This document shows, one piece after another, positions 7,351 through 44,401 of a stretch of DNA of 64,000 nt. This stretch comes from a virus (Duplodnaviria; Heunggongvirae; Uroviricota; Caudoviricetes). Each line of letters opens with the position of its first letter. The first letter of the stretch is position 1. The DNA is taken from positions 1 through 64,000 of the IMG/VR virus record IMGVR_UViG_3300012348_000136; one strand, 5' to 3'. Position numbers and translations under genes: made by a program. Below the pieces are notes generated by a model that was not told the DNA's origin, did no database searches, and worked only from the letters and a program-made list of their open reading frames with translations.

Positions 7351-8323
7351 AGACATCCGCAAAAAGGAAAAGAAACTATCTCGCGATCACTGGATGTGTC
7401 GCATCCAAAAATACGCATTTGACATTGATGCACCTTCATACTACATGGGATACTGTCCATTCTTCTGGATGACATGGGTTGCGGTTGTATTGTTTCCAAT
7501 CATCTACGTTGGCCGTGTGTGTGCGAAACATCTTGTTAAGTTTAACGATTACTTAGACAGTAGGAGTAAGCCTATCCGCAATGCTATCACGAAGTCTGCT
7601 GATCCGTTTCGACCATTGCAGCCGACACACGAAGAGCTATGTCTCATTGCAGATTACCTCGATGAATTTGAGCAGTATCGGGATAATGAAAAACGCGACA
7701 GGGGATCATTGTTTGCATTCCTAAACATTTATGTAGATCTTCGTAACTATACATATAAATGCTCAAAACGTATTAGTAGATGGTTTGACGAAAATCCAAA
7801 TTGGCAAGAGACACATCTGCCAATTGCACGTGAATATGAAAAGAAGCTAGCAGCTGAAAGAAAGCTTGCAGAAGAACGCGAAAGACAAAAAGCGCTTCGT
7901 CGCCGTAAGGTTTCTAATTACACCAGCATCTGTGGGAAGTTTCTTTTTAAGATCATTATCCCGATTCTTATTGGTGCATTGGCTTTTATTGTGTACAAGC
8001 TTCTTGCGCTTGCATATGCAACAATCACTCTATTTGCAGTCCTTACAGTGTTACTTGGATCAATCGTCGCAGGTATCAGTTACTATCTAACACTCATCAT
8101 TTGCGACTTCCTCAAATCATTTGTCCTCACTGATAAAACTGCCGATACTTTCTGTGGAGTTATGGGTCGGATCACCGATTGCTTTGGGCGTATTGGAAAC
8201 ATGATTAAATCTGTGTATGCATTCATTGTTGATACCGTGAAGTTGACATACAAAGCAGAATGTCCAATGATCATCTGGGGTGAAGAAACCGGAAAAATTA
8301 CACGTCGTGAAAAAGAAATGTAA
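7337..8323 (+). CDS. integral membrane protein
   Basis: Several long hydrophobic helices (FFWMTWVAVVLFPIIYVG; ILIGALAFIVYKLLALAYATITLFAVLTVLLGSIV). Confidence 0.45.
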   Translation: MNNTEDIRKKEKKLSRDHWMCRIQKYAFDIDAPSYYMGYCPFFWMTWVAVVLFPIIYVGRVCAKHLVKFNDYLDSRSKPIRNAITKSADPFRPLQPTHEELCLIADYLDEFEQYRDNEKRDRGSLFAFLNIYVDLRNYTYKCSKRISRWFDENPNWQETHLPIAREYEKKLAAERKLAEERERQKALRRRKVSNYTSICGKFLFKIIIPILIGALAFIVYKLLALAYATITLFAVLTVLLGSIVAGISYYLTLIICDFLKSFVLTDKTADTFCGVMGRITDCFGRIGNMIKSVYAFIVDTVKLTYKAECPMIIWGEETGKITRREKEM

Positions 8324-8591
8324 TTATGTCTATGATGAAACATCGTGTATGTTCGTATGTGGCACATGTAAGAACGAAATAGTTGCGCATAGCCAAAGTG
8401 ATTTCAACCGAAAGAAAAGACAAAAGAAATGCCGTAAGCCTCAAACGTCTATGGAACATTTGGGCAAAGGCGATGGGTCAAAAAGCAACTGATCATGATG
8501 GAGAAGCAGATATTGCTGCAATCATACGAACCGTGTTCTGGGTGGTTAACCTCATTACCTGCTTCTTCATTATGGCCAACACAATAAGACA

Positions 8592-9026
8592 TTGGTAAAG
8601 ATGGATACAAAGCAAGTCATTGTCATGCGCAAAGATCTGAATATGCGCAAGGGCAAAATGTGCGCTCAGGCTAGTCATGCCAGTATGTCATTCTTAACAA
8701 AGAACGGATCTGTCTGTAGAGATTGGCGTGATGAAGATTGGTGCGTCATCGAGTTTTGTTCTAGCACATATGAAATAGAAAAGTATGAAGACGAAATCAA
8801 TCACTGGTTGCAAAATTCTTTTCGTAAGATCACTGTCTATGTCAACAGCCAAGAAGAACTAGAAGTAATTCATCAAAAAGCTCTTGATGCCAAACTAATC
8901 TCTCATTTGATTATTGATAATGGGGCGACCGAATTCAATGGAGTTCCTACAATGACATGCTGCGCAATTGGACCGCATTGGGACTCTAAGTTTGAAGGAA
9001 TTACTAATCACTTACCGCTACTATAA
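8592..9026 (+). CDS. peptidyl-tRNA hydrolase PTH2-family protein
   Basis: KQVIVMRKDLNMRKGKMCAQASHAS matches the PTH2 signature (..V.R.DL.M.KGK..AQ..HA). Confidence 0.55.
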   Translation: MVKMDTKQVIVMRKDLNMRKGKMCAQASHASMSFLTKNGSVCRDWRDEDWCVIEFCSSTYEIEKYEDEINHWLQNSFRKITVYVNSQEELEVIHQKALDAKLISHLIIDNGATEFNGVPTMTCCAIGPHWDSKFEGITNHLPLL

Positions 9027-9244
9027 TGTTACTATCAACCGAAGCAAGGCAAGTGTTTATAAATCGACGCACGTTAGAGCCTGAGTTTAGTAAAAAATTC
9101 GCTCTGATGATTAATCCTGATCAAATAGCGTTTATTAGATATCATGACGACTATGGAATGTATTTATGCTCGATAGGCGGAAATATCTTTTACTTAGATG
9201 TAGATTTTGTTGAAAATGAAATAGCAATCGTATCTGAATTATGA
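9026..9244 (+). CDS. hypothetical protein (72 aa)
   Basis: Track ORF. Confidence 0.4.
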   Translation: MLLSTEARQVFINRRTLEPEFSKKFALMINPDQIAFIRYHDDYGMYLCSIGGNIFYLDVDFVENEIAIVSEL

Positions 9245-19338: not shown

Positions 19339-19854
19339 ATGAAAACGAACACTACTGTATACACTCCCCCTAGATACTCTAAGAGATACTCTAAGAGAGA
19401 CAGCTCCGCTCCTTCAGTCTTCCTAGCAGGAAGTATTGAAATGGGTAACGCTGAAGATTGGCAAACAAAAGCTATTGATTATTTTAGGCGCGTTATTCCG
19501 ATTGGAAACTCTATCGACTTCTATAATCCTCGGCGTCCTGATTGGGATTCTAGTTGGGTTCAAGATCTAAACAGTCCCAACTTCTATGAGCAGGTATCTT
19601 GGGAACTTGATCATTTGCTTGCAGCTGACTTCATTTATATGTACTTTGATCCATCTACTCAAAGTCCCATTTCTCTCCTTGAGCTTGGCATGTTTGCAAA
19701 TAGCGGCAAGATGGTTGTATGCTGTCCCAATGGATTCTATCGTAAAGGAAACGTCGATATCGTTTGCCAAAAGATGCAGGTACCACTCTTTACTAACTTT
19801 GAGGCAAGCCTAATTGCGCTAAGAAACAGAATTGGAGAATACGCTGAATGGTGA
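19339..19854 (+). CDS. nucleoside 2-deoxyribosyltransferase-family protein
   Basis: VFLAGSIE ... LLELGMFANSGK pattern of the Nuc_deoxyrib_tr fold. Confidence 0.5.
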   Translation: MKTNTTVYTPPRYSKRYSKRDSSAPSVFLAGSIEMGNAEDWQTKAIDYFRRVIPIGNSIDFYNPRRPDWDSSWVQDLNSPNFYEQVSWELDHLLAADFIYMYFDPSTQSPISLLELGMFANSGKMVVCCPNGFYRKGNVDIVCQKMQVPLFTNFEASLIALRNRIGEYAEW

Positions 19855-20369: not shown

Positions 20370-20900
20370 ATGAAAACTCTACAAACACCTGAAGAATATG
20401 GATACGTCCAGCATGGAAACATTGTCCTCTTTCAGAAAGGACCGCTTAGCCAATGGTATGGTGGCTTTAAAGATCAGGATAGTTGTTTCTATGATCAATA
20501 TAGCGGCTATCATTTTAATTGTTGTGAACAATGGATGATGGCTCAAAAGGCGTTTCTTTTTAGTGATTTGGATACAGCCGACCTTATTATTGCAGAGAGA
20601 CATCCAGGAACCCAAAAGGACCTCGGTCGACGTGTTAAGAACTTTGATCCTACGCTTTGGGACGCCGTGAAAGAAGACATCGTGTTTCTTGGAAACTATT
20701 ATAAGTTTACTAAGTGCAATCATTTACGTGACTTTTTGTTTTCGTATGATGTTAATACAATCTTTGCTGAGGCTGCTCCATGGGATCCAATCTGGGGAAT
20801 CGGACTTGGGCCAAATGATCCGGATGCAGCCGATCCTTCAAAGTGGCGTGGTCAAAATCTGCTTGGTAAAGCAATCAGTCGCGTTCGTAAATTACTCTAA
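20370..20900 (+). CDS. NADAR-domain (YbiA-like, DUF1768) protein
   Basis: FYDQYSGYHFNCCEQWMMAQKAFLF ... DPIWGIGLG ... WRGQNLLGKAI match NADAR family motifs. Confidence 0.6.
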   Translation: MKTLQTPEEYGYVQHGNIVLFQKGPLSQWYGGFKDQDSCFYDQYSGYHFNCCEQWMMAQKAFLFSDLDTADLIIAERHPGTQKDLGRRVKNFDPTLWDAVKEDIVFLGNYYKFTKCNHLRDFLFSYDVNTIFAEAAPWDPIWGIGLGPNDPDAADPSKWRGQNLLGKAISRVRKLL

Positions 20901-25497: not shown

Positions 25498-25932
25498 ATG
25501 TCACTAGCCCGAATGAATGAAATGCTGGAAGATATGAACTCCCAGCCGTCCGCAGCCGAAGGATTCTCCGCCGCCCACTTTTACAAGATGGGCCAAAAAT
25601 ACGGACTGACCTGCAGCGAAATCATGGTGAACTTCCTTGGCAAGGCGCGTGCGCTTTCCCGTGGCAAGTATCCCGCCGTCGCTCCCGATGCGCCGCTTGA
25701 AACGAGCCGCAAGCCGAAAGCGGTCGCTCCCAAGCCGCTGAAGGCTGCCGCTAAAAAGGCGCCTAAGAAGGCTGCTGCGGAAAAACCCGCTAAGGCGCCC
25801 AAGAAGACCAAGCCAAGCATTGCCGATGAAATCAATGCTGAGCTTGACGCTGAAGATCTCGACGAGGTCGAGGAAACTGGCACGGTGTTTGAATACATCG
25901 CGACTCCTGAGGAAATCGCTGAAGAAGGCTGA
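25498..25932 (+). CDS. histone-H1-like basic protein with AKKAPKKAA repeats
   Basis: Ala/Lys/Pro repeat block and acidic C-terminus; locally GC-rich. Confidence 0.5.
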   Translation: MSLARMNEMLEDMNSQPSAAEGFSAAHFYKMGQKYGLTCSEIMVNFLGKARALSRGKYPAVAPDAPLETSRKPKAVAPKPLKAAAKKAPKKAAAEKPAKAPKKTKPSIADEINAELDAEDLDEVEETGTVFEYIATPEEIAEEG

Positions 25933-25941
25933 ATCATTCAC

Positions 25942-25966
25942 GCGGGGCGAAAGCCCCGCTTTTTTC
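25942..25966 (+). terminator. rho-independent terminator
   Basis: GCGGGGC GAAA GCCCCGC followed by TTTTTT. Confidence 0.7.
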
Positions 25967-26307: not shown

Positions 26308-26640
26308 ATGAATATTCCAATCCTCAATCGCCTTCGCGAAATGTTTAAAGCCGAGCGTCCAGAACGCTATGAAAACGATGCACTTGCATCACTTATGTTT
26401 ATCTTCGTTAAAGAAGGAAACGGATATGATGATCAGGACTTAGGCATTGCAGTACATGACATCATTGAAGAATGTCAAACGTACATTTATCGCGATCGTC
26501 CTCTTCAAGTTAACGCTATGATTGAGGCTGAAATAAACGGAGAATATGATGAAGCCGATTACATCGCGAAAAGTATTTACGAACAAGATACAATCGTCAT
26601 GTGCAACCTAGTTAAAATCAGAGAATACATTTACGCATGA
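26308..26640 (+). CDS. hypothetical protein (110 aa)
   Basis: Track ORF. Confidence 0.45.
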   Translation: MNIPILNRLREMFKAERPERYENDALASLMFIFVKEGNGYDDQDLGIAVHDIIEECQTYIYRDRPLQVNAMIEAEINGEYDEADYIAKSIYEQDTIVMCNLVKIREYIYA

Positions 26641-27344
26641 AACAACCAAGAACAGCAGACATACGCGACACACTTGCATCGCTTTATAAGCAAGGGCACT
26701 TCTCAACCGATAAGACTGGTGTAAAAACCGTAGAGATTGTCGGCGCAAGCTTCATTGCCGATGAACCGACAATCTTTGGAGCTCTTAACGATGAATACAT
26801 TGAAAAGGAATTGGATTGGTACTTGTCGCAAAGCTTATATGTCAAAGACATCGGTGATCCTGTTCCGAAGATTTGGACAGCCGTTTCTGACCGTGAAGGT
26901 AAGATCAATTCAAACTATGGCTATCTAATTTTCTCACAGGAGAATGGTCTGCAATTCCAAAATGTTCTAAATGAATTGCTTTCTAACAAAGATTCGCGTC
27001 GGGCCGTAATGATTTACACGCGCCCAAGTATGCATACGGATTACAACTCAAATGGCATGAGTGATTTCATTTGTACCAATGCAGCGCAGTACTTGATCCG
27101 TGATGGCGCATTACATACAGTTGTCCAGATGCGCAGCAATGATGTTGTCTTCGGATATCGCAATGATTATGCTTGGCATCAATATGTAACAAAAGAACTT
27201 CTTAAGCAATACAATGACTGTCTTGCGGATCCAAGTGATGCTGTTGTTCTTGGACAAACGTCGTGGCAAGTGGGTTCTTTACATGTGTATGAAAGACACT
27301 TTAAGATGATTGAGGACTATATAGCTTCACTCTCTGAGCAATAA
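26637..27344 (+). CDS. 42: dCMP hydroxymethylase (thymidylate-synthase family, T4 gp42-like)
   Basis: GASFIADEPTIFGALNDEY, SRRAVMIYTRPS and MSDFICTNAAQYLIRD ... MRSNDVVFGYRNDYAW match ThyA-family motifs and resemble my recollection of T4 gp42. Confidence 0.6.
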   Translation: MKQPRTADIRDTLASLYKQGHFSTDKTGVKTVEIVGASFIADEPTIFGALNDEYIEKELDWYLSQSLYVKDIGDPVPKIWTAVSDREGKINSNYGYLIFSQENGLQFQNVLNELLSNKDSRRAVMIYTRPSMHTDYNSNGMSDFICTNAAQYLIRDGALHTVVQMRSNDVVFGYRNDYAWHQYVTKELLKQYNDCLADPSDAVVLGQTSWQVGSLHVYERHFKMIEDYIASLSEQ

Positions 27345-27348
27345 ATTG

Positions 27349-27377
27349 TTTACAATTTGTGCACGGCCTGATATAAT
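27349..27377 (+). promoter_or_regulatory. sigma70-like promoter
   Basis: TTTACA-N17-TATAAT. Confidence 0.55.
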
Positions 27378-27383
27378 ATCTTT

Positions 27384-27848
27384 ATGATACGGAATGAGAT
27401 TCCTGCGCTACTAGCCAAACCCACTAGGAAATTTCCAGAGCTGGTTGCGCATTTTATCCCTGCACCTGATTACACAAACGAACCAAACAAAATAGACTAT
27501 ACCCGAATGGAAGAAAAAGAAAGCATTAAAATTCTTGACGAATGTAAAGCACTTCAAATCAAGAAGTCAAACGATTACCAAAATCCCCACTCACGTATTC
27601 GTCAAGCAGATTATTATCCTCGCGGCGTTGCTACAATTCTTGACATCATTCAAGCAAAAGTGCTGCGAATGTATTCGGTAATTGAGGCTATGGAAAACGA
27701 TCCAAGCTATGTTCCGAACTTTGAAAGCTTTGAGGATAGCTGTAAAGATCTTATTAACTATGCTTCATTTGCAGCTGCATATTCACGTGGCAAGGTCGAT
27801 GGTCAGTCTCCTTCCAAAGACTTCCTAAATCGCAATGTGAACGCATGA
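27384..27848 (+). CDS. hypothetical protein (154 aa)
   Basis: Track ORF. Could be an NTP-pyrophosphatase-type nucleotide-metabolism protein; I could not assign it. Confidence 0.4.
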   Translation: MIRNEIPALLAKPTRKFPELVAHFIPAPDYTNEPNKIDYTRMEEKESIKILDECKALQIKKSNDYQNPHSRIRQADYYPRGVATILDIIQAKVLRMYSVIEAMENDPSYVPNFESFEDSCKDLINYASFAAAYSRGKVDGQSPSKDFLNRNVNA

Positions 27849-28720
27849 AGAACGTAGTGTTTATCCCGACGTCTAATCTTTACAGAGTGCGTACTCTGAT
27901 AAAGTACTATAACGTCCATAACTTACCAACTGATCAGCGTGTCATTTTCATCGCCGATGATCGTGGCAACATCTCAAAGGAAGAGTATGCTGAGGCTGTA
28001 AATGATTCGAGGTTTGAGTTAATCTATACCTCCGATATGATGGCTGCCGTGAATGACTTGTTTGCGGACTGTCCATATTATGATCCAATCATCAATGACA
28101 TGTATAAAGTGTCAGTGAAAATGCTTGTGTTCATTTATGCAGCTCGTCATATGAGTATCCGCAAGAGCTTGATGCTTGACGACGACATCTTGTTTCTCAA
28201 GCCGCTTGATGAATGGTTTGCGTATGATTATGTTGTCAAAGAGGACGGCTTGTCAACGATGACTACAACATTAGTTAATGGTTTTCAAAGTACATACCCT
28301 CATGTTGATGTTGCGGAATTTAATCAGCCAAAGCATCGTATCAATTCAGGAAGCATTCTTTACACTATGGAAGATAACGACCGTTTGCTTAACGACGTTC
28401 GTGCTTTCTTCTCATCAGACGACATATATCGCATTCTCGTGAATCGTCTAAATAAGACAAGTTCACGTCGAAAAGGTTGGGGTTATGATTGGATGCTTGA
28501 ACAATACTTCTATGGCATCCATATGTATTCCTTAGGCGTAGAGATTCCGCGCTTCCGTTCAGCCGTTAATATTGGTCTTGGATATCCAAAGGAAGATAAA
28601 CCGCTTAAGCCATTTAAGAAAATTCCAAATGTGATTCATTTCCTTCAGATGGAAAAGCAGCGAATGTACGATGCATATCTACCTCTGATTGATGAATACA
28701 TCAGAACCAATAAACTGTAA
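27845..28720 (+). CDS. putative glycosyltransferase
   Basis: DDD motif (LMLDDDILF), possibly a GT-A DxD. Confidence 0.35.
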   Translation: MKNVVFIPTSNLYRVRTLIKYYNVHNLPTDQRVIFIADDRGNISKEEYAEAVNDSRFELIYTSDMMAAVNDLFADCPYYDPIINDMYKVSVKMLVFIYAARHMSIRKSLMLDDDILFLKPLDEWFAYDYVVKEDGLSTMTTTLVNGFQSTYPHVDVAEFNQPKHRINSGSILYTMEDNDRLLNDVRAFFSSDDIYRILVNRLNKTSSRRKGWGYDWMLEQYFYGIHMYSLGVEIPRFRSAVNIGLGYPKEDKPLKPFKKIPNVIHFLQMEKQRMYDAYLPLIDEYIRTNKL

Positions 28721-28721
28721 C

Positions 28722-29771
28722 ATGGCACAACATATCACAACACTTGTCGTTGACTATGACGACACAATAGCAATTACTTTTAATCGTGATTGGCAGAATG
28801 CTAAACCAAATCAGCCGCTGATTAATAAACTAAATCAGCTGTATGATCAAGGATGGACCATTCACATTGTAACTGCACGCGGTCAGCTTTCATGTGATGG
28901 TGACTATCAAAAAGCAGATGATAAGTATCGTAAGCAAATTGAAAAGTGGTTGAGCGATCATAATGTAAAGTATCATACGCTAAGTTTCCAAAAGAAGCTG
29001 GCAGCATATTACATTGATGATAAAGGAATAACTCCTGAGCAGTTTGTTGAAAAATTTGATCGGGTTGATCTACAAAACGGTTGGTCAGGTGCTTCAGTTT
29101 ATTATGATGCAGTTACTGATTGCGTTTATAAGACCGCGTCAAACGGTCATGAAGCAATTCAGTGGTATGAGCATGCAACCGCATTAGGTTACAATACACC
29201 ACATGTCCACAACATCATCGGCAACACTATTCGTATGAGTAGGCTGCCTGCTTACACTGGAAGTGTATGTGATGCGGTTGATAGTATCATATCATTCGGC
29301 AAACATCCAGCATTGCGCGGAAATAAAGACGCTCTTGCATATGTTGAACGCTGTACCGCGCGCGTAAAGAACATGTTGCCAACCGATACTTTAAAAAGTA
29401 TTGTTAACTTTCTACAGGTTGCAATGCAGTCTACACCATTCACATTTGGGCACGGTGATTGTTCATCGTTGAACATTATGGGAGCTGCGGCTGACTCATG
29501 TGTTCCTGCATTCATTGATCCAATCAACGATTCTACATTGTATAGCAGCTATGTCATTGACCTTGGAAAATATTATGCAAGCATTGACATCTTTAAACAA
29601 GAACCATCTATTAAAGACGAAATCCTTAATGCTGTAGATAGCGTAAGTAGCTGGACAATCAAAGCGCATGCACTTGGACATCTTTGCCGTTGCTTGCCAT
29701 ATGCACCCACTGAGGCAGACAAACTGCATATAACTACTCTTATCGAAAAACAAACATATGCTCTTAGATAA
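28722..29771 (+). CDS. bifunctional HAD-like phosphatase / APH-type sugar kinase candidate
   Basis: N-terminus VVDYDDTIA (HAD motif I) and IVTAR. C-terminal HGDCSSLNI (HGDxxxxN kinase motif) and FIDPIND. Confidence 0.45.
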   Translation: MAQHITTLVVDYDDTIAITFNRDWQNAKPNQPLINKLNQLYDQGWTIHIVTARGQLSCDGDYQKADDKYRKQIEKWLSDHNVKYHTLSFQKKLAAYYIDDKGITPEQFVEKFDRVDLQNGWSGASVYYDAVTDCVYKTASNGHEAIQWYEHATALGYNTPHVHNIIGNTIRMSRLPAYTGSVCDAVDSIISFGKHPALRGNKDALAYVERCTARVKNMLPTDTLKSIVNFLQVAMQSTPFTFGHGDCSSLNIMGAAADSCVPAFIDPINDSTLYSSYVIDLGKYYASIDIFKQEPSIKDEILNAVDSVSSWTIKAHALGHLCRCLPYAPTEADKLHITTLIEKQTYALR

Positions 29772-30207
29772 AAAAGAACTAGCCGCTAGACTTGGAAAAG
29801 ATATCAACGACGTAAAGATTGGTCTTACCGCGTCCACATTTGACTTGTTTCATGCAGGCCATAATGTAATGCTGATGGAAGCAAAACAACTTTGTGACTA
29901 TCTCATTGTTGGCTTGCTGGTAGACCCAACAAAAGATCGCCCAGACACAAAGAACAAGCCAGTCCAAAGTGTGTTTGAGCGTTACATCCAAATTTCAAGC
30001 TGCAAGTACATTGATGAAATCATTCCGTTTGAAACCGAAAACGATTTGGTCGATATGATCCTAACTATCAATCCTGACATTCGTATTGTTGGGGAAGAAT
30101 ACAAAGGTACTGACCATACTGGAGTTGGTCTTTGCCCAATTCATTATAATAAGCGTCGCCACTCGTTCTCTACAAGTGAGCTACGCACACGAATTCAAAA
30201 TCAATAA
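29758..30207 (+). CDS. cytidylyltransferase-like nucleotidyltransferase (TagD/HldE-adenylyltransferase type)
   Basis: TASTFDLFHAGH HxGH nucleotidyltransferase motif; 149 aa. Confidence 0.55.
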   Translation: MLLDKKELAARLGKDINDVKIGLTASTFDLFHAGHNVMLMEAKQLCDYLIVGLLVDPTKDRPDTKNKPVQSVFERYIQISSCKYIDEIIPFETENDLVDMILTINPDIRIVGEEYKGTDHTGVGLCPIHYNKRRHSFSTSELRTRIQNQ

Positions 30208-30215
30208 TTACATAT

Positions 30216-31238
30216 ATGAAAATACTGATCACCGGCGGTGCCGGATTTGTTGGAACTAATCTAATTCCTTGTTTACTAAATGATGGTCATGATGTTTATG
30301 TCTTTGATAACCTTGCACAAGGAAGCCTAATTCCTGAGGTTCACAATCGTGTTCACGTGTGCATTGGTGATATTACAAATCGTGAACACATCTTTTCGTA
30401 TGTTGAAAATGTAAAGCCTGATATCACGTTTCACTTTGCAGGACTGGTTAGCATTTATGATTGTCATAAAGATTCAGCATCAGCGTGTTTGAATAACATC
30501 AATGGCTCACTCAATGTATTTGATGCATTGCTAGCACATGGTTGTCCGCGTGTTATCTTTTCTGAAACAAGCGCGGTTTATGAGAATTGTGCGTTGCCTC
30601 CAAATGGTTACAATGAATCTCAAAGCGATCCTACTACTTTCTATTCTACATCTAAGGCATGTGTTGCATTGATTGCTGAAAGCTATGCACGTACTAAAGG
30701 ATTGCGATACACTGCGCTTCGTTACTTTAATGTCGCTGGTCCTATTCAAGACTATCGTCGAACAGTACCTCCACTCTTCGCTGGATTTGCAATTCGTATG
30801 ATGGCTGGTAATAATCCAATCATCTTTGGTAACGGTGAACGTCGTCGTGACTTCATTCATGTGGATGACATCAATGATTTCCACATCCTTGCAATGAACA
30901 ATGATGAGACCATCGGTGAGACATACAACCTCGGCCGCGGCGAAAGTTATAGCTTGTATGAAATTGGTGATATTGTCGCAGATGTTTTGCGTAAGCGCGG
31001 ATATCAAAATATTCCCGAAAAGATTACTTATACAATGATGCCTGAAATCAATGGTGAAGCATTTGATATTTACGCAGATGTTCGCAAAGCAAATACATTA
31101 GGGTGGTCTGCATCACGTAGCATTGAAGAAGCGCTAAATGATACCATTGTGTATCTTGAACGTGAAATTGAAAATGGCGCAATTAAGCCAGATACATACA
31201 TGAGCAATATTAATACTGACAGCGTTAAGATTGGATAA
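30216..31238 (+). CDS. NAD-dependent sugar epimerase/dehydratase (extended SDR)
   Basis: ILITGGAGFVGTNL Rossmann motif and YSTSK catalytic YxxxK. Confidence 0.7.
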   Translation: MKILITGGAGFVGTNLIPCLLNDGHDVYVFDNLAQGSLIPEVHNRVHVCIGDITNREHIFSYVENVKPDITFHFAGLVSIYDCHKDSASACLNNINGSLNVFDALLAHGCPRVIFSETSAVYENCALPPNGYNESQSDPTTFYSTSKACVALIAESYARTKGLRYTALRYFNVAGPIQDYRRTVPPLFAGFAIRMMAGNNPIIFGNGERRRDFIHVDDINDFHILAMNNDETIGETYNLGRGESYSLYEIGDIVADVLRKRGYQNIPEKITYTMMPEINGEAFDIYADVRKANTLGWSASRSIEEALNDTIVYLEREIENGAIKPDTYMSNINTDSVKIG

Positions 31239-32514
31239 CATGAACATCTTTGTAGGAAAATTAGGAAAAAGTATTCTCTTCAAGCGATCGTCTTGGGGAC
31301 CAATTGGTGGTGATAATGAAGCTCCGCTATATTATGAAAATCTATTTCATCGCAATCCTGACATTCAATTTTACTTGTTAGGTTGCAGCGACTATGATCG
31401 TCTAGCACCTGAAGAACGTGATCGTATTAATAAGAACGGTAACGTCCATAATATCTGGGGTGATGATTGGAAGAACTTCAAAAAGACATATAGCGGACCA
31501 AAGGTTAGCTGCCGTATTGATTACATGGATCAATGGGCTGCAAAGGCTAAAGAGTCTGGTTTGAACATGGATGTTGGAATCCTTTTTGCAGGACCAAACG
31601 CAACATGTAATATGCCATTTCGTGTGACGAAAATGAAGGATCCAACTGTAATAGCTAAGCCTATTGATATGTTGGCTCTTTATGCTGGTCCGTTGGTTTC
31701 TTACCTAAACACTTACCGTGTTCCATATACATTGATCGTAAATGACCCTCGGTTCTTTCCATTTATGTCAAAGGATTTGCTACACGCGCCATCGAGTGTA
31801 TTGTCGCAATACAATGAGACAATTACTTTCAAGCACCGAAAGACATACACTGATAACACCGTCATTCAGTTTCCACTTGAAGCAAGGTATGCATCGTCTG
31901 AAACAATTTATTTGATTAACGATAAGAGTAAAGAAACTGAATCGAAACCATGCTCGCTTGAGTCATTCTTCGGTGAAGATACGCCAGTTGAAGAAACGGG
32001 TGTGGTAGAGCGCGACATTAAGTTCCTAGTTGTTCTTAATGAAGGTCGCCCTTCGCGCTATGGTCTTCTTAAAGAAAATATTTTAGATCATATTGATGAT
32101 GTTAGTGTTTATGGTCAATGGGATCCTGAAACTATTGGAGATGATCCTCGCTTTAAAGGTAGCGTATCTTATGATGAACTGCAAAAGATGCTTCCTCGTA
32201 TCAAGTATTCATATTGCATTCCAATTAAGCCAGGCTGGGTGACAATGAAGTTTTGGGAACTGTTAAATCATGGAGTTATTCCATTCTTGCATCCAACATA
32301 TGACAGTCAAAATAATCTAAATGCTCCAGAGTTTCTGAGAGTTAAAGATAGTAAAGATTTAGCAGCTAAGATAAATTTCTTAGAGAATAATCCTGAAGAA
32401 TATACGCTATTCTTAAATAGGCTAAAAGCAATGATTAAGCCAGAGCATCGCGATGGGTCGCTATTAAATAACATCGTAATGAATGAAATCACAAAGATAA
32501 CAAATAATGACTAA
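31231..32514 (+). CDS. DNA beta-glucosyltransferase homologue (T4 beta-gt-like)
   Basis: Blocks resembling my recollection of T4 beta-gt: WVTMKFWELL vs ITLRVWETM, a RPSRYG block and a C-terminal EFLRVKDSKDLAAKINFL block. Confidence 0.5.
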   Translation: MDNMNIFVGKLGKSILFKRSSWGPIGGDNEAPLYYENLFHRNPDIQFYLLGCSDYDRLAPEERDRINKNGNVHNIWGDDWKNFKKTYSGPKVSCRIDYMDQWAAKAKESGLNMDVGILFAGPNATCNMPFRVTKMKDPTVIAKPIDMLALYAGPLVSYLNTYRVPYTLIVNDPRFFPFMSKDLLHAPSSVLSQYNETITFKHRKTYTDNTVIQFPLEARYASSETIYLINDKSKETESKPCSLESFFGEDTPVEETGVVERDIKFLVVLNEGRPSRYGLLKENILDHIDDVSVYGQWDPETIGDDPRFKGSVSYDELQKMLPRIKYSYCIPIKPGWVTMKFWELLNHGVIPFLHPTYDSQNNLNAPEFLRVKDSKDLAAKINFLENNPEEYTLFLNRLKAMIKPEHRDGSLLNNIVMNEITKITNND

Positions 32515-33781
32515 TAAGAAATATACATACGCAGCAATTGTACCTCTAATTGGGGGTGAAGTATTGGGTACAACCGAAGCTCTAAATGGGCAGCTACCCG
32601 AATATGTACTATCATATACTCCATTCAAGAATAATGATGAGCATTACATCAATTACATCCGTACTCAAAAAGGATGGTCTGGTGATTATGTTTTCTTAGA
32701 TGAAAACACTGATTATGTAGCGCCGCATGTAGACGTTGTTCTTACAACATGTCCATGCGCAGGACTATCAAGCTTTAGTACAACAAGTAATGAAAATAGT
32801 GCAACCAATGATTGGATGTATCGCACTGCAGAATATGTACTTGGCACAATTAAGCCAACTGTTTTCTGGGGAGAAAATGCTCCACGATTGTATGGTAACA
32901 GCGGTAAGAAAGTAGCAGACCGTCTGCATGAAATTGGTAAGGCGCTTGGATACAGCCTGAATCTTTACTATACCGAAAGCCGTCTGCATGGATTGTCACA
33001 AAAGAGACCGCGCACATTCTACTTCTTCACGAAGAGTGAATCCGCTCCTATCTTTTCGTGGCATAATAAAGAGCCTGAGTCAGTTGAAGACGTTCTTAAA
33101 ATGGCAAAGCGTCCAGATGACCCGATGAATATTCTTACCAATGAAGAATGCCCAACCGCTAATGCATGGGTTGCATACAACATGGCAATGACGGAGTCAA
33201 AGACAATCGGTCAATTGGCTACACACTTTGACAAGACAACTAACATGATTGTTAACACTGACGGCGGTTATGGTAAGAATCTTCTTGAGGTTGCGGATTG
33301 GATGGACGCTAATGGCCATAGTCATGTAGCAAAGCGCGCACGCGCAATGCAAGCAAAACTCGATGATGGTAAAGGCTACTGGGCGCACGGCGTCACTCTT
33401 CCAAAAGGTCAACTTATTCCTGCTTTCATCGGTGCACTTCCGTACTGTATGATTAACCCATTCACCGAAAAGTACATTACTATTCGTGATGGTCTTCGTC
33501 TAATGAAGATGCCTGAAGACTTTAATCTTGTGGGTGATAAACCACTCGCCAAGCTTAATCACGTTTGCCAAAACGTTCCAGTTACGACTGCACGTGACAT
33601 GATGCTTAATGTTATTGAGTATCTTGAAGGCAAAACGCAATATGGAGACTGCTCATATATCAAGCAAAGTAATAAGAATAAGAATATTGTTCGTGTTACG
33701 CTTGATGAAACGTACGCAGCAAATACTGCGGACCTTGATGAGTTTTTCCATTTACATAAACACAAAACTAATATACAATAA
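32507..33781 (+). CDS. C5-cytosine methyltransferase-fold protein
   Basis: Ordered motifs: I PLIGGEVLG, IV TCPCAGLSSFS, VI GENAPRL, VIII SQKRPRTFYFF, X-like CQNVPV. Confidence 0.5.
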   Translation: MTNKKYTYAAIVPLIGGEVLGTTEALNGQLPEYVLSYTPFKNNDEHYINYIRTQKGWSGDYVFLDENTDYVAPHVDVVLTTCPCAGLSSFSTTSNENSATNDWMYRTAEYVLGTIKPTVFWGENAPRLYGNSGKKVADRLHEIGKALGYSLNLYYTESRLHGLSQKRPRTFYFFTKSESAPIFSWHNKEPESVEDVLKMAKRPDDPMNILTNEECPTANAWVAYNMAMTESKTIGQLATHFDKTTNMIVNTDGGYGKNLLEVADWMDANGHSHVAKRARAMQAKLDDGKGYWAHGVTLPKGQLIPAFIGALPYCMINPFTEKYITIRDGLRLMKMPEDFNLVGDKPLAKLNHVCQNVPVTTARDMMLNVIEYLEGKTQYGDCSYIKQSNKNKNIVRVTLDETYAANTADLDEFFHLHKHKTNIQ

Positions 33782-33797
33782 ACATAATACAAATACT

Positions 33798-34880
33798 ATG
33801 TCATCCGTACTCGATAAACTAAAAAAGAATTGCCGAATTAAAGAAGCAGATGTCCTTTCAGAATCGGACTTCTATTCGGAAAAGGATATTACTCCTACAC
33901 CAGTGCCAATGATTAATGTTGCTCTTAGCGGCAGCATTGATGGTGGTCTTACTAGCGGACTTACTGTTCTTGCAGGTCCGTCCAAGCACTTCAAGACTAG
34001 CTTTGCGCTTCTTATGGCTGCAAGCTATCTGAAAAAGCATAAGGATGCAGTTCTTATGTTTTATGATTCCGAATTCGGATCGCCACAGCAATACTTTGAA
34101 AGCTTTGGCATTGATACATCGCGCGTTCTACATGTTCCTATTAAGAACATTGAAGAACTAAAGTTTGACTTGGTCAATCAGCTTGATCAAATTGAACGTA
34201 AGGATAAGGTTGTAATTGTTATCGACTCGGTTGGTAACCTTGCAAGTAAGAAGGAACTTGAAGATGCTCTGAACGAAAAGAGCGTCGCTGACATGACGCG
34301 CGCAAAGGCGCTAAAAGGTCTGTTCCGTATGGTTACTCCATATCTTACAATGAAGAACATTCCGCTTATTGCAATTAACCACACCTATCAGGAAATTGGA
34401 TTGTTCCCGAAGGCGATTGTTAGCGGCGGCACCGGCATTACTTACAGTGCCGACAACATCTGGATTCTTGGTCGTCAGCAAGATAAAGATGGTACTGAAA
34501 TTCAGGGATATCACTTCATCATTAACGTCGAGAAGTCTCGCTTCGTTAAGGAAAAGTCGAAGATCCCGATCAGCGTAAGTTGGGAAGGCGGTATTCAGAA
34601 GTGGTCTGGATTGCTTGATGTTGCTATTGACGGTGGATATGTTATCAAACCAAAGAATGGTTGGTACATGGCAGTGAACAAGGCAACTGGAGAACCGCTT
34701 ACGCAAAACTTGCGAGCTGCGCAGACTATGACGTCTGACTTCTGGGAGAAGGTGTTTAATAACACTAACTTTGCCAAATACATTAAAGACAAGTATACAA
34801 TTGGTCTGCGTGACATGATCACTGAGACTGCTTCTAAAGACTTGTCTGATGATGAAATCCTTGAGCAGTACGAAGAGTAA
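33798..34880 (+). CDS. uvsX: UvsX RecA-like recombinase
   Basis: Extensive similarity to my recollection of T4 UvsX (MINVALSG ... LAGPSKHFKTSFAL ... LFYDSEFG ... DSVGNLASKKELEDALNEK ... DMTRAKALKGLFR ... NHTY). Confidence 0.8.
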   Translation: MSSVLDKLKKNCRIKEADVLSESDFYSEKDITPTPVPMINVALSGSIDGGLTSGLTVLAGPSKHFKTSFALLMAASYLKKHKDAVLMFYDSEFGSPQQYFESFGIDTSRVLHVPIKNIEELKFDLVNQLDQIERKDKVVIVIDSVGNLASKKELEDALNEKSVADMTRAKALKGLFRMVTPYLTMKNIPLIAINHTYQEIGLFPKAIVSGGTGITYSADNIWILGRQQDKDGTEIQGYHFIINVEKSRFVKEKSKIPISVSWEGGIQKWSGLLDVAIDGGYVIKPKNGWYMAVNKATGEPLTQNLRAAQTMTSDFWEKVFNNTNFAKYIKDKYTIGLRDMITETASKDLSDDEILEQYEE

Positions 34881-35179
34881 TGATTGAAGGAAAAGACTAC
34901 TTGTTGGTCGAAGATGATTTACATCCAGACCAATTCCTGATACAATTAACAAGTAGCGGATATGCTGGTGTAATTTACCGTTATGGTAAAGTCAGTATAG
35001 TTGAGGAAAAGAATCAGGCACGCTTGAAGTTTATCTACAAGATTGAGAGCGTGCCTGATTTTCTCACACACCGCCGCGACAAATTGCAAGAAGATCCTGA
35101 GTTCAATAATCTGCTCGGTGAAATTCTCGCTGACATTCTCTCAAATAACGACTGTAAAATAGGAAGACCACATGATTGA
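34880..35179 (+). CDS. small protein in the position of T4 gene 40
   Basis: Lies between the uvsX and gp41 homologues as gene 40 does in T4; no motif support. Confidence 0.35.
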   Translation: MIEGKDYLLVEDDLHPDQFLIQLTSSGYAGVIYRYGKVSIVEEKNQARLKFIYKIESVPDFLTHRRDKLQEDPEFNNLLGEILADILSNNDCKIGRPHD

Positions 35180-36581
35180 TATTTCTCTTGAATCCCTTAT
35201 CTTAAACAACCTTGTCAACAATGAAGCATACACACGCAAAGCTATGCCTCATATTAAGCCTGAATACTTTACAGGCTCTCAGCGTGTAATCTATGAGCTG
35301 ATTCTTGACTTCATCAGCAAGTATAATAAGCTTCCAAACGCTAGTGTACTTGACATTGAATTTCAAAAAAGTAATGCAGCGGTGCGTCCAGACCGTCACG
35401 ATATTCTAAAAGAGATACGTGAATTTAGTACGCCACAACCAGCTGAACATGAATGGCTTGTAGACAGCACTGAAAAGTGGTGTAAGGATCGCGCTGTTCA
35501 TTTGGCTGTTATGGAAGCCATCTCAATCATCGATGGCAAAAATAAAGATAAGGCCGAAGGAGCAATTCCTGAGATTCTTAACAAAGCTTTAAGCGTAACA
35601 TTTGATACAAACGTAGGTCACGACTATCTTGAGAATGCTGATCGTCGATTTGATTTCTATCATCGTGTTGAAGATAAGATTGAGTTTGATCTTGATATGC
35701 TTAATCAAATTACCAATGGCGGTGTTCCTCGTAAGACACTAAATATCATCCTTGCAGGTACAGGTGTTGGTAAGAGTTTGGGTATGTGTCACCTTGCCGC
35801 AGCTGACCTTTCTATGGGTCGCAACGTTCTTTACATTACGATGGAAATGGCAGAAGAACGTATTGCTGAACGTATTGATGCTAACCTGCTTGATGTTCGT
35901 ATTGATGAGCTAAAGAACTTGTCACAAACTGCTTTCTCATCGAAGATTAAGAACCTATCAGAACGCACAAAAGGTAAGATTGTTATTAAGGAATATCCAA
36001 CAGCTAGTGCACATGCTGGACACTTCCGCGCATTGCTACATGAGCTGAAACTGAAAAAGAAGTTTACGCCTGATGTCATTTACATTGACTATCTTAACAT
36101 TTGCGCTAGCAGCCGTATTAAAGGATTAAGCGGTAGTGTTAATACTTACAGCTTAATCAAGGCTATTGCTGAAGAACTACGTGGTCTTGCGGTTGAATTT
36201 AATGTTCCGATTTGGAGTGCAACACAGGTTACACGTGGCGGCTATAACAGTTCCGATGTTGAACTAACTGACACATCCGAAAGTTTCGGTTTGCCTGCAA
36301 CCGCTGACTTGATGATTGCGTTTATCAGCACTGAGCAACTTGAAAAGATGAATCAGCTTATGGTTAAACAGCTCAAGAATCGTTATAATGATGCAAATAC
36401 AAATAAGCGATTCACTGTTGGTATTGATCGCTCAAAGATGCGACTGTATGATGTTGCTGATCCAACCGCAAATATTATGAGTGAGGAATCTTCATCAGCT
36501 GCGCCAGTTGCAAATACACCATTTAGTCGAGGCGGTAATAATGCACAAAGAGGAAAATCCTTTAGCGACTTCAAAGTATGA
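35172..36581 (+). CDS. 41: gp41-like replicative DNA helicase (DnaB family)
   Basis: ILAGTGVGKSLGMCHLAA ... NVLYITMEMAEE ... IDANLLDV ... GLPATADLMIA match my recollection of T4 gp41. Confidence 0.8.
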   Translation: MIDISLESLILNNLVNNEAYTRKAMPHIKPEYFTGSQRVIYELILDFISKYNKLPNASVLDIEFQKSNAAVRPDRHDILKEIREFSTPQPAEHEWLVDSTEKWCKDRAVHLAVMEAISIIDGKNKDKAEGAIPEILNKALSVTFDTNVGHDYLENADRRFDFYHRVEDKIEFDLDMLNQITNGGVPRKTLNIILAGTGVGKSLGMCHLAAADLSMGRNVLYITMEMAEERIAERIDANLLDVRIDELKNLSQTAFSSKIKNLSERTKGKIVIKEYPTASAHAGHFRALLHELKLKKKFTPDVIYIDYLNICASSRIKGLSGSVNTYSLIKAIAEELRGLAVEFNVPIWSATQVTRGGYNSSDVELTDTSESFGLPATADLMIAFISTEQLEKMNQLMVKQLKNRYNDANTNKRFTVGIDRSKMRLYDVADPTANIMSEESSSAAPVANTPFSRGGNNAQRGKSFSDFKV

Positions 36582-42167: not shown

Positions 42168-43166
42168 ATGAAACAATCAGATACACCTGCAAGTAAAGAA
42201 CCTAAGAAGATTCGATTAAAGGATCTTATCGCTGTTGACTACACTGACGACTCATGGCCTGAGGACGAAGAAGGACAGTTAGCATACGATTATTGGAAGC
42301 GCGCGTCTGGAGTTCTTGATGAGGAAGAAATTGAAGAAGGCATTGATTGGTTTAAGCTTGTCTATGGTGACAGCAAATTAGCTATTGCTAAGAAGATTAA
42401 AGCTACCCCATCTAAGACTTTAGAAACTCTAGCTAAATCAAATCCAAATGCAGCTGGTGCTCAAAAATTTCAGCATGAGTTTGCCGTAAAAGAACTTGAA
42501 TATCGCAAGAAGATTAATGATCATTCTGACGGTAACCCAAAATATAAGAAAGAATATGGGAATGGATATAGTCATTTAGAAGATTCACTCGAAGAATCTC
42601 ACGATTCTCAAATCTCTAAGTATGAACTAAATGGCGAGCTTAAGCGTGTAAATGATCGTATTAAGTTCCTACGTGCGGCTCATCATGGTTCCTCTTTACC
42701 TAAGGACGTTTCATCTGAGCTAAAGCGACTTGAAGATCAACGTGATAGTATTCTTTCAATGCTTAAGGAAGAAGATATCCTTGAAGATGTTGACTCTGAG
42801 ACTATCACAGAGGCACTTAATATGTTGCAGCGCATGAAGCGCCGCGCGATTATGCGTAGAAACAAATCAAAGATTCTTGCAGGCCGTCGTCGCGCGCAAC
42901 GCCGCCGCGCATCCACCTCAGTTCTTCAGCAACGTGCAGTGCGCGCGGCTCGTGCTGCTCTTGCTCGCCGCTTGTTACATAAAAATAAAGGTGAAGCTAG
43001 CTATGGTGAAAAGGTTCGAGTTGAAAGAATGCTTGCTGCTCGCCAAGGGGCAATTAAGAACATTGCTCGCCGTCTTCTTTCAAAGGTTCGTCAAAAGGAA
43101 CGTATGCGTTTCCAAAAGCATGCTACCCCTCCAAAGCCAATCCAATCCATTAAGCCAAATAAGTAA
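42168..43166 (+). CDS. hypothetical protein with a strongly basic C-terminus
   Basis: Arg-rich tail RRRAQRRRAST... Confidence 0.45.
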   Translation: MKQSDTPASKEPKKIRLKDLIAVDYTDDSWPEDEEGQLAYDYWKRASGVLDEEEIEEGIDWFKLVYGDSKLAIAKKIKATPSKTLETLAKSNPNAAGAQKFQHEFAVKELEYRKKINDHSDGNPKYKKEYGNGYSHLEDSLEESHDSQISKYELNGELKRVNDRIKFLRAAHHGSSLPKDVSSELKRLEDQRDSILSMLKEEDILEDVDSETITEALNMLQRMKRRAIMRRNKSKILAGRRRAQRRRASTSVLQQRAVRAARAALARRLLHKNKGEASYGEKVRVERMLAARQGAIKNIARRLLSKVRQKERMRFQKHATPPKPIQSIKPNK

Positions 43167-44401
43167 TGGGACTCAAATCATTCCGTACCTACACCGAAGA
43201 ATCAACTAAGGAATTAGTTGCGACATTCGGCCGCTTTAATCCGCCGACAATTGGTCATGAAAAATTGATTAATGCGGTTGCAAAAGAAGGCAAAGGTAAA
43301 ACATATCGCATTTACGCATCGCAAAGCGAGGATTCAAAAAAGAACCCGCTATCTTACGATGATAAGATTAAATTTATGCGTAAGATGTTTCCACAGTATG
43401 GTCGCAATATCATACTGGATCGCGCAATCAAAAATGTGTTTAACGTAGCGTCAGCTGCACATGACGATGGCTACACAAAATTCACGTTGGTTGTAGGGAG
43501 CGATCGTGTTCCAGAATTTAAGTCTTTGCTTGCAAAGTATGATGGTGTTAAAGGTACACATGGGTACTATAAATTCCGTGATGGTATTCAAGTTGTATCT
43601 GCGGGCGAACGCGATCCTGATGCAGACGATGTAAGTGGTATGAGTGCATCAAAGATGCGTGCTGCGGCGGCTGATAACGATCTTGATACTTTTGCAAAAG
43701 GACTGCCTAAAACATTTGGTGAAGTCAAGGAGTTGTTTAATGCTGTGCGAAAAGGAATGGGTCTAAAAGAAAGCCATAACTTCCGTAAGCATGTTCAGTT
43801 TGAGCCACTAAGCAATATTCGTGAACGCTATATTGCTGGAGAAATTTTCAATGTTGGCGATGAAGTTTATGCTGAATCTGAGAGTGACATGATCCTTACT
43901 GTTGAATCACGCGGACCAAACCATGTCACGTGTAAACTACCAAATGGAGAAACCAAACGCTTCTTTATAACCGATCTGCATATAGTTGAAGGCTCTTCAT
44001 ACTATACGGGCCTGTCAAAATCAACCGCTGATAAACGCGAAAAGCATTTTGACAAGAACGCTAAGAAGGATGACGATGATGACAGTGCATACGCGCCTGC
44101 ACCAGGCGATAAGACCGCTGTCACTAAACCTTCAAAATACACAAAAGAATATCAAAGGAGATTTGATGAAGGCGCTAGCCCAGTGTCTAAAGCACTGCGT
44201 AAAAAGTCAGAAGATTCTGGTATTGACTATGGTATACTTAAAGACGTATATGACCGTGGACATGCTGCATGGAGAACTGGCCATCGTCCTGGAACAACGC
44301 CTGAGCAGTGGGGATTGGCTAGAGTAAACAGTTTTATAGTTGGAGGAACAACCCGCAAGACCACAGACTCCGACTTATGGAAAAAGCATAAAGGTAAATA
44401 A
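43166..44401 (+). CDS. cytidylyltransferase-like nucleotidyltransferase, NMNAT candidate, with capsid-targeting-like N-terminus
   Basis: N-terminus MGLKSFRTYTEES, then GRFNPPTIGHEKL (HxGH motif) and SGMSASKMR (ISSTxxR-like); unknown C-terminal half. Confidence 0.5.
   Translation: MGLKSFRTYTEESTKELVATFGRFNPPTIGHEKLINAVAKEGKGKTYRIYASQSEDSKKNPLSYDDKIKFMRKMFPQYGRNIILDRAIKNVFNVASAAHDDGYTKFTLVVGSDRVPEFKSLLAKYDGVKGTHGYYKFRDGIQVVSAGERDPDADDVSGMSASKMRAAAADNDLDTFAKGLPKTFGEVKELFNAVRKGMGLKESHNFRKHVQFEPLSNIRERYIAGEIFNVGDEVYAESESDMILTVESRGPNHVTCKLPNGETKRFFITDLHIVEGSSYYTGLSKSTADKREKHFDKNAKKDDDDDSAYAPAPGDKTAVTKPSKYTKEYQRRFDEGASPVSKALRKKSEDSGIDYGILKDVYDRGHAAWRTGHRPGTTPEQWGLARVNSFIVGGTTRKTTDSDLWKKHKGK

Follow-up and report, generated by a model that had tools for sequence, protein, structure and literature searches.

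Which DNA modification is encoded by the gene island that lies between a gp42-like dCMP hydroxymethylase gene and the recombinase gene uvsX in the IMG/VR virus record IMGVR_UViG_3300012348_000136? The stretch analysed here, referred to as the window, comprises positions 1 to 64,000 of that record. Since the gene order in T4 is 42 - beta-gt - segA - uvsX - 40 - 41, the island occupies the T4 beta-glucosyltransferase (beta-gt) slot, where the initial annotation of this DNA had also placed it. We find that eight genes, designated A to H (Table 1), very probably form a DNA cytosine hypermodification locus of an uncultured marine T4-like phage. In the overall scheme, to which we assign a probability of about 0.7, 5-hydroxymethylcytosine (hmC) is made and then decorated with a sugar produced by the phage itself; that this sugar is a heptose is somewhat better than an even bet. 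By coating their cytosines with sugars, phages evade restriction enzymes and CRISPR nucleases, and such modifications are also a source of enzymes for epigenetic sequencing tools.

The initial annotation had described six linked genes, C to H. All six open reading frames (ORFs) are present on the + strand at precisely the coordinates it gave, tightly packed, and the motifs named for them (LDDDIL, HGDCSSLN, FHAGH, GGAGFVG and YSTSK) are all found where they were expected. It had overlooked the conserved gene B.

The modified base can be deduced from A. This protein aligns over its full length with the structures of T4 dCMP hydroxymethylase and matches the thymidylate synthase superfamily (PF00303, 1.3e-15), so that its designation as gp42-like stands. 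Its motif MRSNDVVFGYRNDYAW is nearly identical to the T4 counterpart, the active-site string MRSNDVVFG(F/Y)RNDYAW is common to both enzymes, and the catalytic cysteine lies in GMSDFICTN, aligned to GMSDFMCTN of T4, with an aspartate three residues before it. Residues diagnostic for cytosine specificity and hydroxymethylation have been defined for ThyA homologues (PMC13326640). A carries the aspartate of cytosine-specific enzymes at the position of ThyA N177, within RNDYAW as in T4 (the mutant chain 6l18 reads RNNYAW), and the acidic residue of hydroxymethylating enzymes at the position of ThyA L143 (SDFICTN). At ThyA position 169, RB69-type makers of 5-hydroxy-dCMP have asparagine and T4-type hmC synthases aspartate (Lee et al. 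2026, PMC13326640). A keeps the aspartate (MRSND, as in T4) and does not show the D169N exchange of 5-hydroxy-dCMP synthases; therefore, the modified base is hmC and not 5-hydroxycytosine. Judged by these residues, A is a true hmC synthase. RB69-type 5-hydroxycytosine chemistry, of the RB69 gp48 or DLP3 gp80 type, was rejected on account of the retained Asp169. The precedent of arabinosyl-hmC in RB69-like phages, which the initial annotation had invoked, no longer holds, as the RB69 sugar is now known to sit on 5-hydroxycytosine (PMC13326640).

B adjoins A in nearly all related loci. The copy in the window matches PF07659 at an E-value of only 0.074, six of nine members of its family match this model (best 3.6e-6), and phrog_1485 is matched at 1.9e-12. 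A profile search of B against the PDB returned noise only. The NMAD and TAGT domains were reportedly defined by Iyer et al. in 2013. An assignment of B as a MazG-like dCTPase found no support: hhalign against a candidate from Pseudoalteromonas phage XG4 gave 0.2% probability, and that candidate itself has no MazG match in Pfam.

D, E and F are supported by their domain families as a pathway that activates a sugar to a nucleoside diphosphate (NDP) sugar. The HAD domain of D, matched over residues 7-110, hits PDB entries 9iqw (1e-12) and 1xpj (2.4e-10), TIGR01689 (1.9e-16) and phrog_1238 (3.9e-20). Its kinase domain carries HGDCSSLN, of the HGDCSxxN pattern, and FIDP; hhalign pairs it with the kinase domain at the C-terminus of AfhE-like nucleotidyltransferase-kinases (66%, E 5.6e-5), HGD..N and IDP being in register. 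E matches phrog_7878 at 1.5e-29; its top PDB matches are ethanolamine-phosphate and glycerol-3-phosphate cytidylyltransferases, and its top NCBIfam match is TIGR02199, the RfaE heptose-1-phosphate adenylyltransferase domain (2.3e-18, 66 bits against a trusted cut-off of 181.5). F matches the UDP-glucose 4-epimerase 4zrm at 2.3e-38, TIGR01179 (GalE) at 2.6e-42 (145 bits) and the heptose epimerase model TIGR02197 at 2.7e-34 (119 bits; cut-off 274.6), in both models below cut-off. Neither E, for HldE domain II, nor F, for HldD, attains equivalog level in the NCBIfam models. By these scores, D, E and F are analogues, not orthologues, of HldE, GmhB and HldD. The proposal of an ADP-heptose-type pathway nevertheless fits well: the top match of E and a reconstituted metagenomic cluster, contig 53 (described at the end), speak for it, even if the relation is one of analogy and F is more GalE-like.

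The initial annotation had suggested two glycosyltransferases. For both, C and G, no useful sequence match was obtained, and they were placed by structure prediction followed by a fold search. The predicted structure of C has a GT-A fold with the DxD motif that binds metal and nucleotide sugar, as in GT8-like enzymes, and resembles the lipopolysaccharide (LPS) and O-antigen GT8 enzymes WbbM and LgtC. C is probably a second or alternative sugar transferase. For the model of G, the fold search ranked T4 beta-GT first, followed by BshA at 18.5 and T4 alpha-GT at 15.9. The claimed resemblance of G to T4 beta-GT is thereby upheld at the level of the fold only: G has no match to the T4 beta-GT family in Pfam at E<=0.1, its family profile finds no beta-GT among PDB sequences, with a weak C-terminal match to a fucosyltransferase only, and hhalign against the T4 beta-gt sequence gives a collinear, weak alignment (8% probability, E 0.004). 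Sequence membership in GT63 was accordingly not found, and the modelled GT-B fold is nearest to T4 beta-GT. From this model, G is probably the DNA hmC glycosyltransferase, and more specifically a heptosyltransferase.

Together, these assignments suggest the following pathway. A turns dCMP into 5-hydroxymethyl-dCMP, a step shown by homology, and replication incorporates the product in place of cytosine, with B as the constant partner of A. In a second step, modelled on the domain families and on the reconstituted cluster of like architecture, the kinase of D would phosphorylate C1 of a host sugar phosphate, most likely D-glycero-D-manno-heptose 7-phosphate, and the HAD domain of D would strip the distal phosphate to leave the sugar-1-phosphate. 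E would couple this product to a nucleotide, and F would epimerise the resulting NDP-sugar. G would then attach the sugar, in one or possibly several rounds, to the hmC hydroxyl group in double-stranded DNA, and C may add a further alpha-linked sugar or serve a different subset of hmC. Least certain is a fourth step, in which H would methylate cytosines that escaped replacement, as a second protective layer. As a net result, the virion DNA would contain glycosyl-hmC (probably heptosyl-hmC) and so withstand the restriction enzymes and CRISPR nucleases of the host. A non-glucose sugar, as initially proposed, remains the best reading.

Two samples of related loci put the island in context: a B-anchored sample of 55 loci spanning B to uvsX, and a D-anchored sample of 73 loci with both D and E, each from a different viral contig. 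The stretch from B to uvsX holds interchangeable cassettes of at least six types. Found in it were the D-E-(F)-G cassette of the window; a HAD protein with an AfhE-like nucleotidyltransferase-kinase and G; an enzyme of the T4 alpha-GT family (AGT, PF11440, 7e-36), with or without SDR and UGDH-like genes; a TET-associated glycosyltransferase (TAGT, PF20691, 7e-18); a Glf-like mutase set; a single 342-aa gene; a four-gene module of unassigned type (the L039 group); and an empty slot. The closest viral contig, L011, is 97% identical to the window in uvsX, 88% in H, 87% in C and 85% in A, and carries a different core cassette. A different core cassette on a near-identical backbone indicates recent exchange, and the gene 42-uvsX slot appears as a hot-spot at which whole sugar cassettes are swapped between near-identical backbones.

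Within the D-anchored sample, a glycosyltransferase accompanies the D-E pair in all but 3 of the 73 loci. Frequent gene orders are D-E-G-H (24 loci), AGT-like-D-E-H (15), D-C-E-G-H (10), D-E-F-G-H (8) and G-D-E-H (7). C and F rarely occur together, besides the window only in L036, in which C follows G. AfhE-like fusions are present in the sister loci L018, L021 and L023 and in phage XG4, whose gene order is A - HAD - nucleotidyltransferase/kinase - G - second glycosyltransferase - H. In Enterococcus phages 9183, Planchet and TJE4, a thymidylate-synthase homologue is followed by dUTPase, HAD, nucleotidyltransferase/kinase and a G homologue, and H is missing.

Several side observations concern these relatives. 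In Enterococcus phage 9183 (L002 4776-10788; Denvervirus), the cluster includes a 545-aa nucleotidyltransferase-kinase, a homologue 30% identical to G, a protein labelled 'nucleotide sugar synthetase-like' and RNase HI, and represents a candidate pyrimidine glycosylation cluster in a phage of Gram-positive bacteria. The recurrent four-gene module (~390, 325, 300 and 345 aa) occupies the slot in L039 (2620-6792), L044, L065, L089, L112 and L095; these relatives lack both H and a recognisable glycosyltransferase, Pfam gives a weak PALP match only, and the module may encode a different, non-sugar modification of hmC. In L081 (6717-8779), L084 and L091, B is present but the vicinity holds no gp42-type gene. 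Found there instead are proteins of 244 aa and 442 aa (the latter starting MCGLIAAK), which by eye look like another enzyme of the thymidylate-synthase type and a glutamine amidotransferase of class II, respectively.

A number of points weigh against the scheme set out above. Pfam sweeps were run on about 90 ORFs, confined to the + strand and covering ~87% of the window, and among these no dCTPase (MazG-like), dNMP kinase or phosphoheptose isomerase was found; complete replacement of cytosine and a supply of heptose-7-phosphate are for this reason assumed. Homology with contig 53 is drawn from architecture, family matches, protein length and the pattern of fold matches, not from alignment, and orthology is inferred. 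The identity of the sugar is unreadable from sequence. For every equivalog model, the scores of E and F fall far short of the trusted cut-off, and F is by its scores more like GalE than like the heptose epimerase HldD. Finally, H would be left without a substrate if cytosine were fully replaced, as hmC blocks C5, and a clean-up role does not explain how closely H is associated with glycosyltransferases.

The conserved C5-cytosine methyltransferase that travels with glycosyltransferases, in phages expected to have little unmodified cytosine, is a puzzle of the locus. The C5-methyltransferase fold, which the initial annotation had recognised, is borne out by Pfam and by the family profile of H, which finds Dnmt1 and M.HaeIII in the PDB at 5e-10. 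Across 13 homologues, TCPCAGLS, GENAP, QKRPR, the RLMKMPEDF region and QNVP show little or no variation, and catalytic motifs IV (PC), VI, VIII (QxRxR), IX and X are kept over homologues of 26-88% identity. Residues 1-60, which correspond to the part binding S-adenosylmethionine (SAM), were aligned by none of Pfam, the PDB profiles and hhalign against E. coli Dcm, the last covering motifs IV-VIII only. An invariant PLxGG at residues 13-17 stands in the canonical place of motif I, with the phenylalanine and first glycine replaced. By its motifs, H is a C5-cytosine methyltransferase-fold enzyme that is divergent in the cofactor region and has intact catalytic motifs. In total, 1405 homologues were found. 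As a working guess, the least certain of our assignments, H is a SAM-dependent methylase for residual cytosines.

H occurs in 35 of the 55 B-anchored loci. All 35 are multi-gene islands with a recognisable glycosyltransferase, and H is missing from all 13 loci without a glycosyltransferase and from all 7 with a single glycosyltransferase gene; in the D-anchored sample it is present in 69 of the 73 loci, the loci in these counts not being phylogenetically independent. The fixed position of H beside uvsX would also fit a conserved recombination flank. It is quite conceivable, at odds somewhat short of even, that H is a stand-alone anti-restriction or epigenetic methyltransferase at the edge of a recombination hot-spot, and that its co-occurrence with glycosyltransferases reflects an inherited backbone segment. 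H stays immediately 5' of uvsX while the cassettes to its left change, as seen between the window and L011, in which the sugar genes differ; all catalytic motifs of a SAM-dependent C5-methyltransferase are whole; G-type glycosyltransferases of Enterococcus phages work without H; and orphan C5-methyltransferases are common in phages. The pattern of presence and absence in both samples speaks against such independence, as do the distant homologues of H that Pseudoalteromonas phage XG4 and Bacillus phage G encode close to genes for DNA glycosyltransferases and nucleotide sugars. Moreover, a phage that replaces cytosine with hmC would offer a stand-alone methyltransferase few or no targets.

It is doubtful, and clearly less probable than an independent methyltransferase, that H is an integral, unrecognised component of glycosyl-hmC DNA synthesis in phages whose hmC comes from a thymidylate-synthase homologue. 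H could then perform covalent Cys-C6 chemistry on hmC or glycosyl-hmC, use a cofactor other than SAM, or pattern the placement of the sugar. Such a role, if true, would explain the 35 of 35 islands and the 69 of 73 loci with D and E, the lack of TET in the window, the scarcity of free C5 and the divergent cofactor region. In clusters combining methyltransferase, TET and glycosyltransferase, the methyltransferase makes the substrate of TET (PMC8256090). The Pfam sweeps of the + strand ORFs of the 64-kb window revealed no TET/JBP or 2-oxoglutarate oxygenase family, and no further glycosyltransferase or methyltransferase outside the locus.

Two further neighbourhoods of H homologues were observed. 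In Bacillus phage G (L200 1-7077), the H-family protein gp301 is encoded within 5 kb of gp306, annotated as alpha-glucosyltransferase, and gp309, a glucose-1-phosphate thymidylyltransferase, which suggests a DNA glycosylation system. In cyanophages of the S-TIM54/S-TIM5 type (L003 5120-5962 on the - strand; 7992-9209), an H homologue lies two genes from a 'ThyA' that has aspartate at ThyA N177 (RSND...PLD) and may act on dCMP rather than dUMP; the pair hints at an uncharacterised cytosine modification in the S-TIM5 group.

With respect to the sugar, the same pathway logic could apply to a pentose or hexose phosphate (ribose-5-phosphate, arabinose-5-phosphate or hexose-6-phosphate) and yield pentosyl- or hexosyl-hmC. 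We consider this unlikely. It is far from negligible, however, because the Afh pathway of RB69, DLP3 and HY126 shares the logic and F is more GalE-like than HldD-like. The HAD domain of D has its homologue in AfhF and the kinase domain in AfhE, which act on arabinofuranose-5-phosphate in these phages, and F is closest to UDP-hexose 4-epimerases. Sister islands clearly use different sugars, as their Glf-like, UGDH-like, AGT and TAGT genes indicate, and Shewanella phage Thanatos, a distant T4-like phage, has a pentose on cytosine (PMC12838424). In favour of heptose, on the other hand, the sole tested cluster with a HAD-APH protein, a small CTP_transf_like protein and a beta-GT-like GT-B enzyme gave heptose, and the top match of E is a heptose-1-phosphate adenylyltransferase domain. 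The hallmarks of Afh, a SIS arabinose-5-phosphate isomerase and a GT-A-type NTP_transferase fused to a kinase (AfhE), were found by Pfam neither in the locus nor among the + strand ORFs of the window.

That the sugar genes are auxiliary metabolic genes which remodel host surface polysaccharide or LPS, e.g., for superinfection exclusion, rather than DNA, is very improbable: C has its likeness to WbbM and LgtC, E and F resemble enzymes of LPS-core heptose and the HAD domain of D matches a 'capsule biosynthesis phosphatase' family, but the genes sit in the replication module between the hmC synthase and uvsX, at the position of T4 beta-gt, the top structural match of G is a DNA glucosyltransferase, sister islands hold the bona fide DNA glycosyltransferase families AGT and TAGT, the architecture-matched trio of contig 53 modifies DNA in vivo, and the translations of C and G show no membrane-protein features by eye, no prediction tool having been applied.

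Genes A to H are arranged head to tail with gaps or overlaps of 1-14 nucleotides, apart from the 39-nucleotide gap between A and B. The D/E overlap amounts to 14 nucleotides, the F/G and G/H overlaps to 8 nucleotides each, and the C stop at 28720 is followed by the D start at 28722. The G+C content of the locus (0.38-0.43) is the same as that of its flanks, and there is therefore no sign of recent foreign origin. The promoter match between A and B has the top consensus score in the region (11/12) and may, with low confidence, mark the start of a B-to-H transcription unit. A scan of the region for promoters and terminators gave 31 matches against 27.7 expected in shuffled sequence, which is no excess, so that the operon structure rests on gene packing only. 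A strong intrinsic-terminator-like hairpin (window 25942-25959), made up of 7 G-C pairs with a T run behind them, is found directly 3' of a lysine/alanine-rich 144-aa ORF (25498-25932) and represents the most distinct transcription boundary on the 5' side of the locus. The small ORF preceding A, at most a tentative member of the system, has no match in Pfam or PHROG. Some relatives have a counterpart at the equivalent position (56% identity in L011, 32% in L005). At the position of uvsX, L036 is annotated with RecA_N / T4_UVSX_C.

Table 1 Features of the hypermodification locus and its borders (positions in the window).
Feature	Coordinates	Strand	Assignment	Evidence or remark
Small ORF, 110 aa	26308..26640	+		just 5' of hydroxymethylase A, overlap 4 nt
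A	26637..27344	+	T4 gp42-type dCMP hydroxymethylase	phmmer vs PDB 1b49/1b5d, E 1.1e-81
Promoter match	27349..27377	+	sigma-70-like, TTTACA-17-TATAAT with TG	in 39-nt A/B gap
B	27384..27848	+	DUF1599/NMAD1 ('nucleotide modification associated domain 1')-like protein	adjoins A in nearly all related loci
C	27845..28720	+	predicted GT-A fold, GT8-like (retaining-type) glycosyltransferase	invariant DDD motif (LDDDIL)
D	28722..29771	+	bifunctional HAD phosphatase + APH/choline-kinase-like sugar kinase	HAD ~residues 1-115; kinase ~120-349
E	29758..30207	+	small class-I HxGH cytidylyltransferase-like nucleotidyltransferase	PF01467 3.8e-14; motif FHAGH
F	30216..31238	+	extended SDR NDP-sugar epimerase, GalE-like	PF01370 6.6e-51; GGAGFVG, YSTSK
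G	31231..32514	+	predicted GT-B glycosyltransferase, 427 aa	modelled fold closest to T4 DNA beta-glucosyltransferase
H	32507..33781	+	C5-cytosine DNA methyltransferase-fold enzyme	PF00145 3.4e-14 over residues 60-366 only
uvsX	33798..34880	+	recombinase	right-hand island boundary, outside the system

Searched at the nucleotide level, the locus had no match among 50,697 phage records, and proteins from the edges of the window led to short Logan contigs only. The closest cultured relatives are marine cyanomyoviruses, whose gp41 helicase is 58-62% identical to that of the window, and IMG/VR holds many related contigs. By these comparisons, the source phage is a member of an uncultured marine T4-like lineage without a close cultured relative, and this lineage is abundant among marine T4-like phages. 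In relatives L004-L006, L015, L011, L040 and L052, uvsX and/or gp41 are interrupted by insertions of ~1.1-1.7 kb, which could be elements of the intein or homing-endonuclease type; both genes are whole in the window (33798-36581). Elsewhere, the window carries genes for NAD salvage, ribonucleotide reductase, RNase H and the like. Further genes encode a protein resembling nucleoside 2-deoxyribosyltransferases (2e-35), a protein with a NADAR domain (2e-41) and a DUF5824 fusion that represents the second CTP_transf_like protein of the window; together with the NAD-salvage set these map to 19339-19854, 20370-20900, 43166-44401 and the first ~19 kb. The latter region contains NAPRTase/NAMPT and PRPP-synthetase-like genes (the NAD-salvage set), three YopX paralogues and a cREC_REC domain protein.

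How does the locus compare with known systems? The bacterial pathway to ADP-L-glycero-D-manno-heptose (GmhA, HldE, GmhB, HldD) has the same logic of C1 phosphorylation, distal dephosphorylation, nucleotidyl transfer and epimerisation, and the adenylyltransferase domain of HldE is the top family match of E. In contrast, the kinase of the window has an APH and not a PfkB fold, the phosphatase belongs to another HAD subfamily (EcbF/BcbF-like), F is nearer to GalE than to HldD, GmhA is missing, and the scores are far below the equivalog cut-offs.

The Afh systems of RB69, DLP3 and HY126 (PMC13326640) likewise rely on a phage-encoded sugar supply with a C1 kinase, a HAD phosphatase acting at the distal phosphate and nucleotidyl transfer. 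The HAD domain of D and the AfhF phosphatase of RB69 and DLP3 both belong to the 1xpj/9iqw family, the kinase of D can be aligned to AfhE, and several glycosyltransferases are found in both systems. They differ in the acceptor, which in Afh is 5-hydroxycytosine made by a ThyA homologue with D169N, whereas the window keeps Asp169. The Afh kinase forms a fusion with a GT-A-type UDP-sugar pyrophosphorylase; that of the window is joined to the HAD domain, the nucleotidyltransferase being a separate class-I HxGH enzyme. Afh includes an arabinose-5-phosphate isomerase that the window lacks, and has neither epimerase nor methyltransferase.

With T4, the window shares an orthologous hydroxymethylase (E 1e-81), an island between gene 42 and uvsX, and the order of events, in that hmC would replace cytosine before replication and be glycosylated after it. 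T4, however, uses host UDP-glucose and encodes no genes for nucleotide-sugar synthesis; it has no C5-methyltransferase, and G of the window is undetectable as GT63 by sequence.

The closest likeness in architecture is to contig 53, a subclass III cluster from viral metagenomes that encodes a bifunctional enzyme with HAD-like and APH-like domains, a cytidylyltransferase and the 429-aa GT-B enzyme GT53 (bioRxiv 10.1101/2023.12.21.572611). All three enzymes were required in E. coli for 5-heptosyl-mC (449 u), with a di-heptosyl product (641 u), and in this reconstitution hmC was supplied by a methyltransferase and TET; Foldseek matched GT53 to BshA and T4 beta-GT at 11% identity (bioRxiv 10.1101/2023.12.21.572611). 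The same study surveyed ~25,000 contigs and found GT-B enzymes often linked with thymidylate-synthase homologues, in neighbourhoods that also hold epimerases, secondary glycosyltransferases, APH phosphotransferases and methyltransferases. The initial annotation had regarded the gene combination as undescribed, which was overstated in view of this preprint, where the core trio and the general associations are already reported. D, E and G of the window reproduce the three-enzyme architecture in all three of its elements. G, with 427 aa, is close in length to GT53 and has the same two leading fold matches, T4 beta-GT and BshA. D and E match TIGR01689 and TIGR02199, models in the APH-phosphotransferase and NTP-transferase annotation classes of the study, and a C5-methyltransferase is found in both clusters.

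The two clusters differ in the source of hmC, which in contig 53 arises after replication through a C5-methyltransferase and TET (5mYOX) and in the window would arise before replication through the gp42-type enzyme, with no TET in the 64 kb. The window further adds the SDR epimerase F, the GT8-like C and the DUF1599 protein B. We therefore regard the locus as a variant of the contig 53-type system that takes its hmC from a thymidylate-synthase homologue, the core pathway having been demonstrated in the 2023 preprint. The heptose-type module of HAD-APH protein, CTP-transferase and beta-GT-like enzyme, previously demonstrated only in a methyltransferase/TET context, is here found downstream of a T4-type hydroxymethylase. 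New relative to the known system are this T4-type source of hmC, the extra epimerase, the extra GT8-like transferase and a methyltransferase that has no TET partner in the window.

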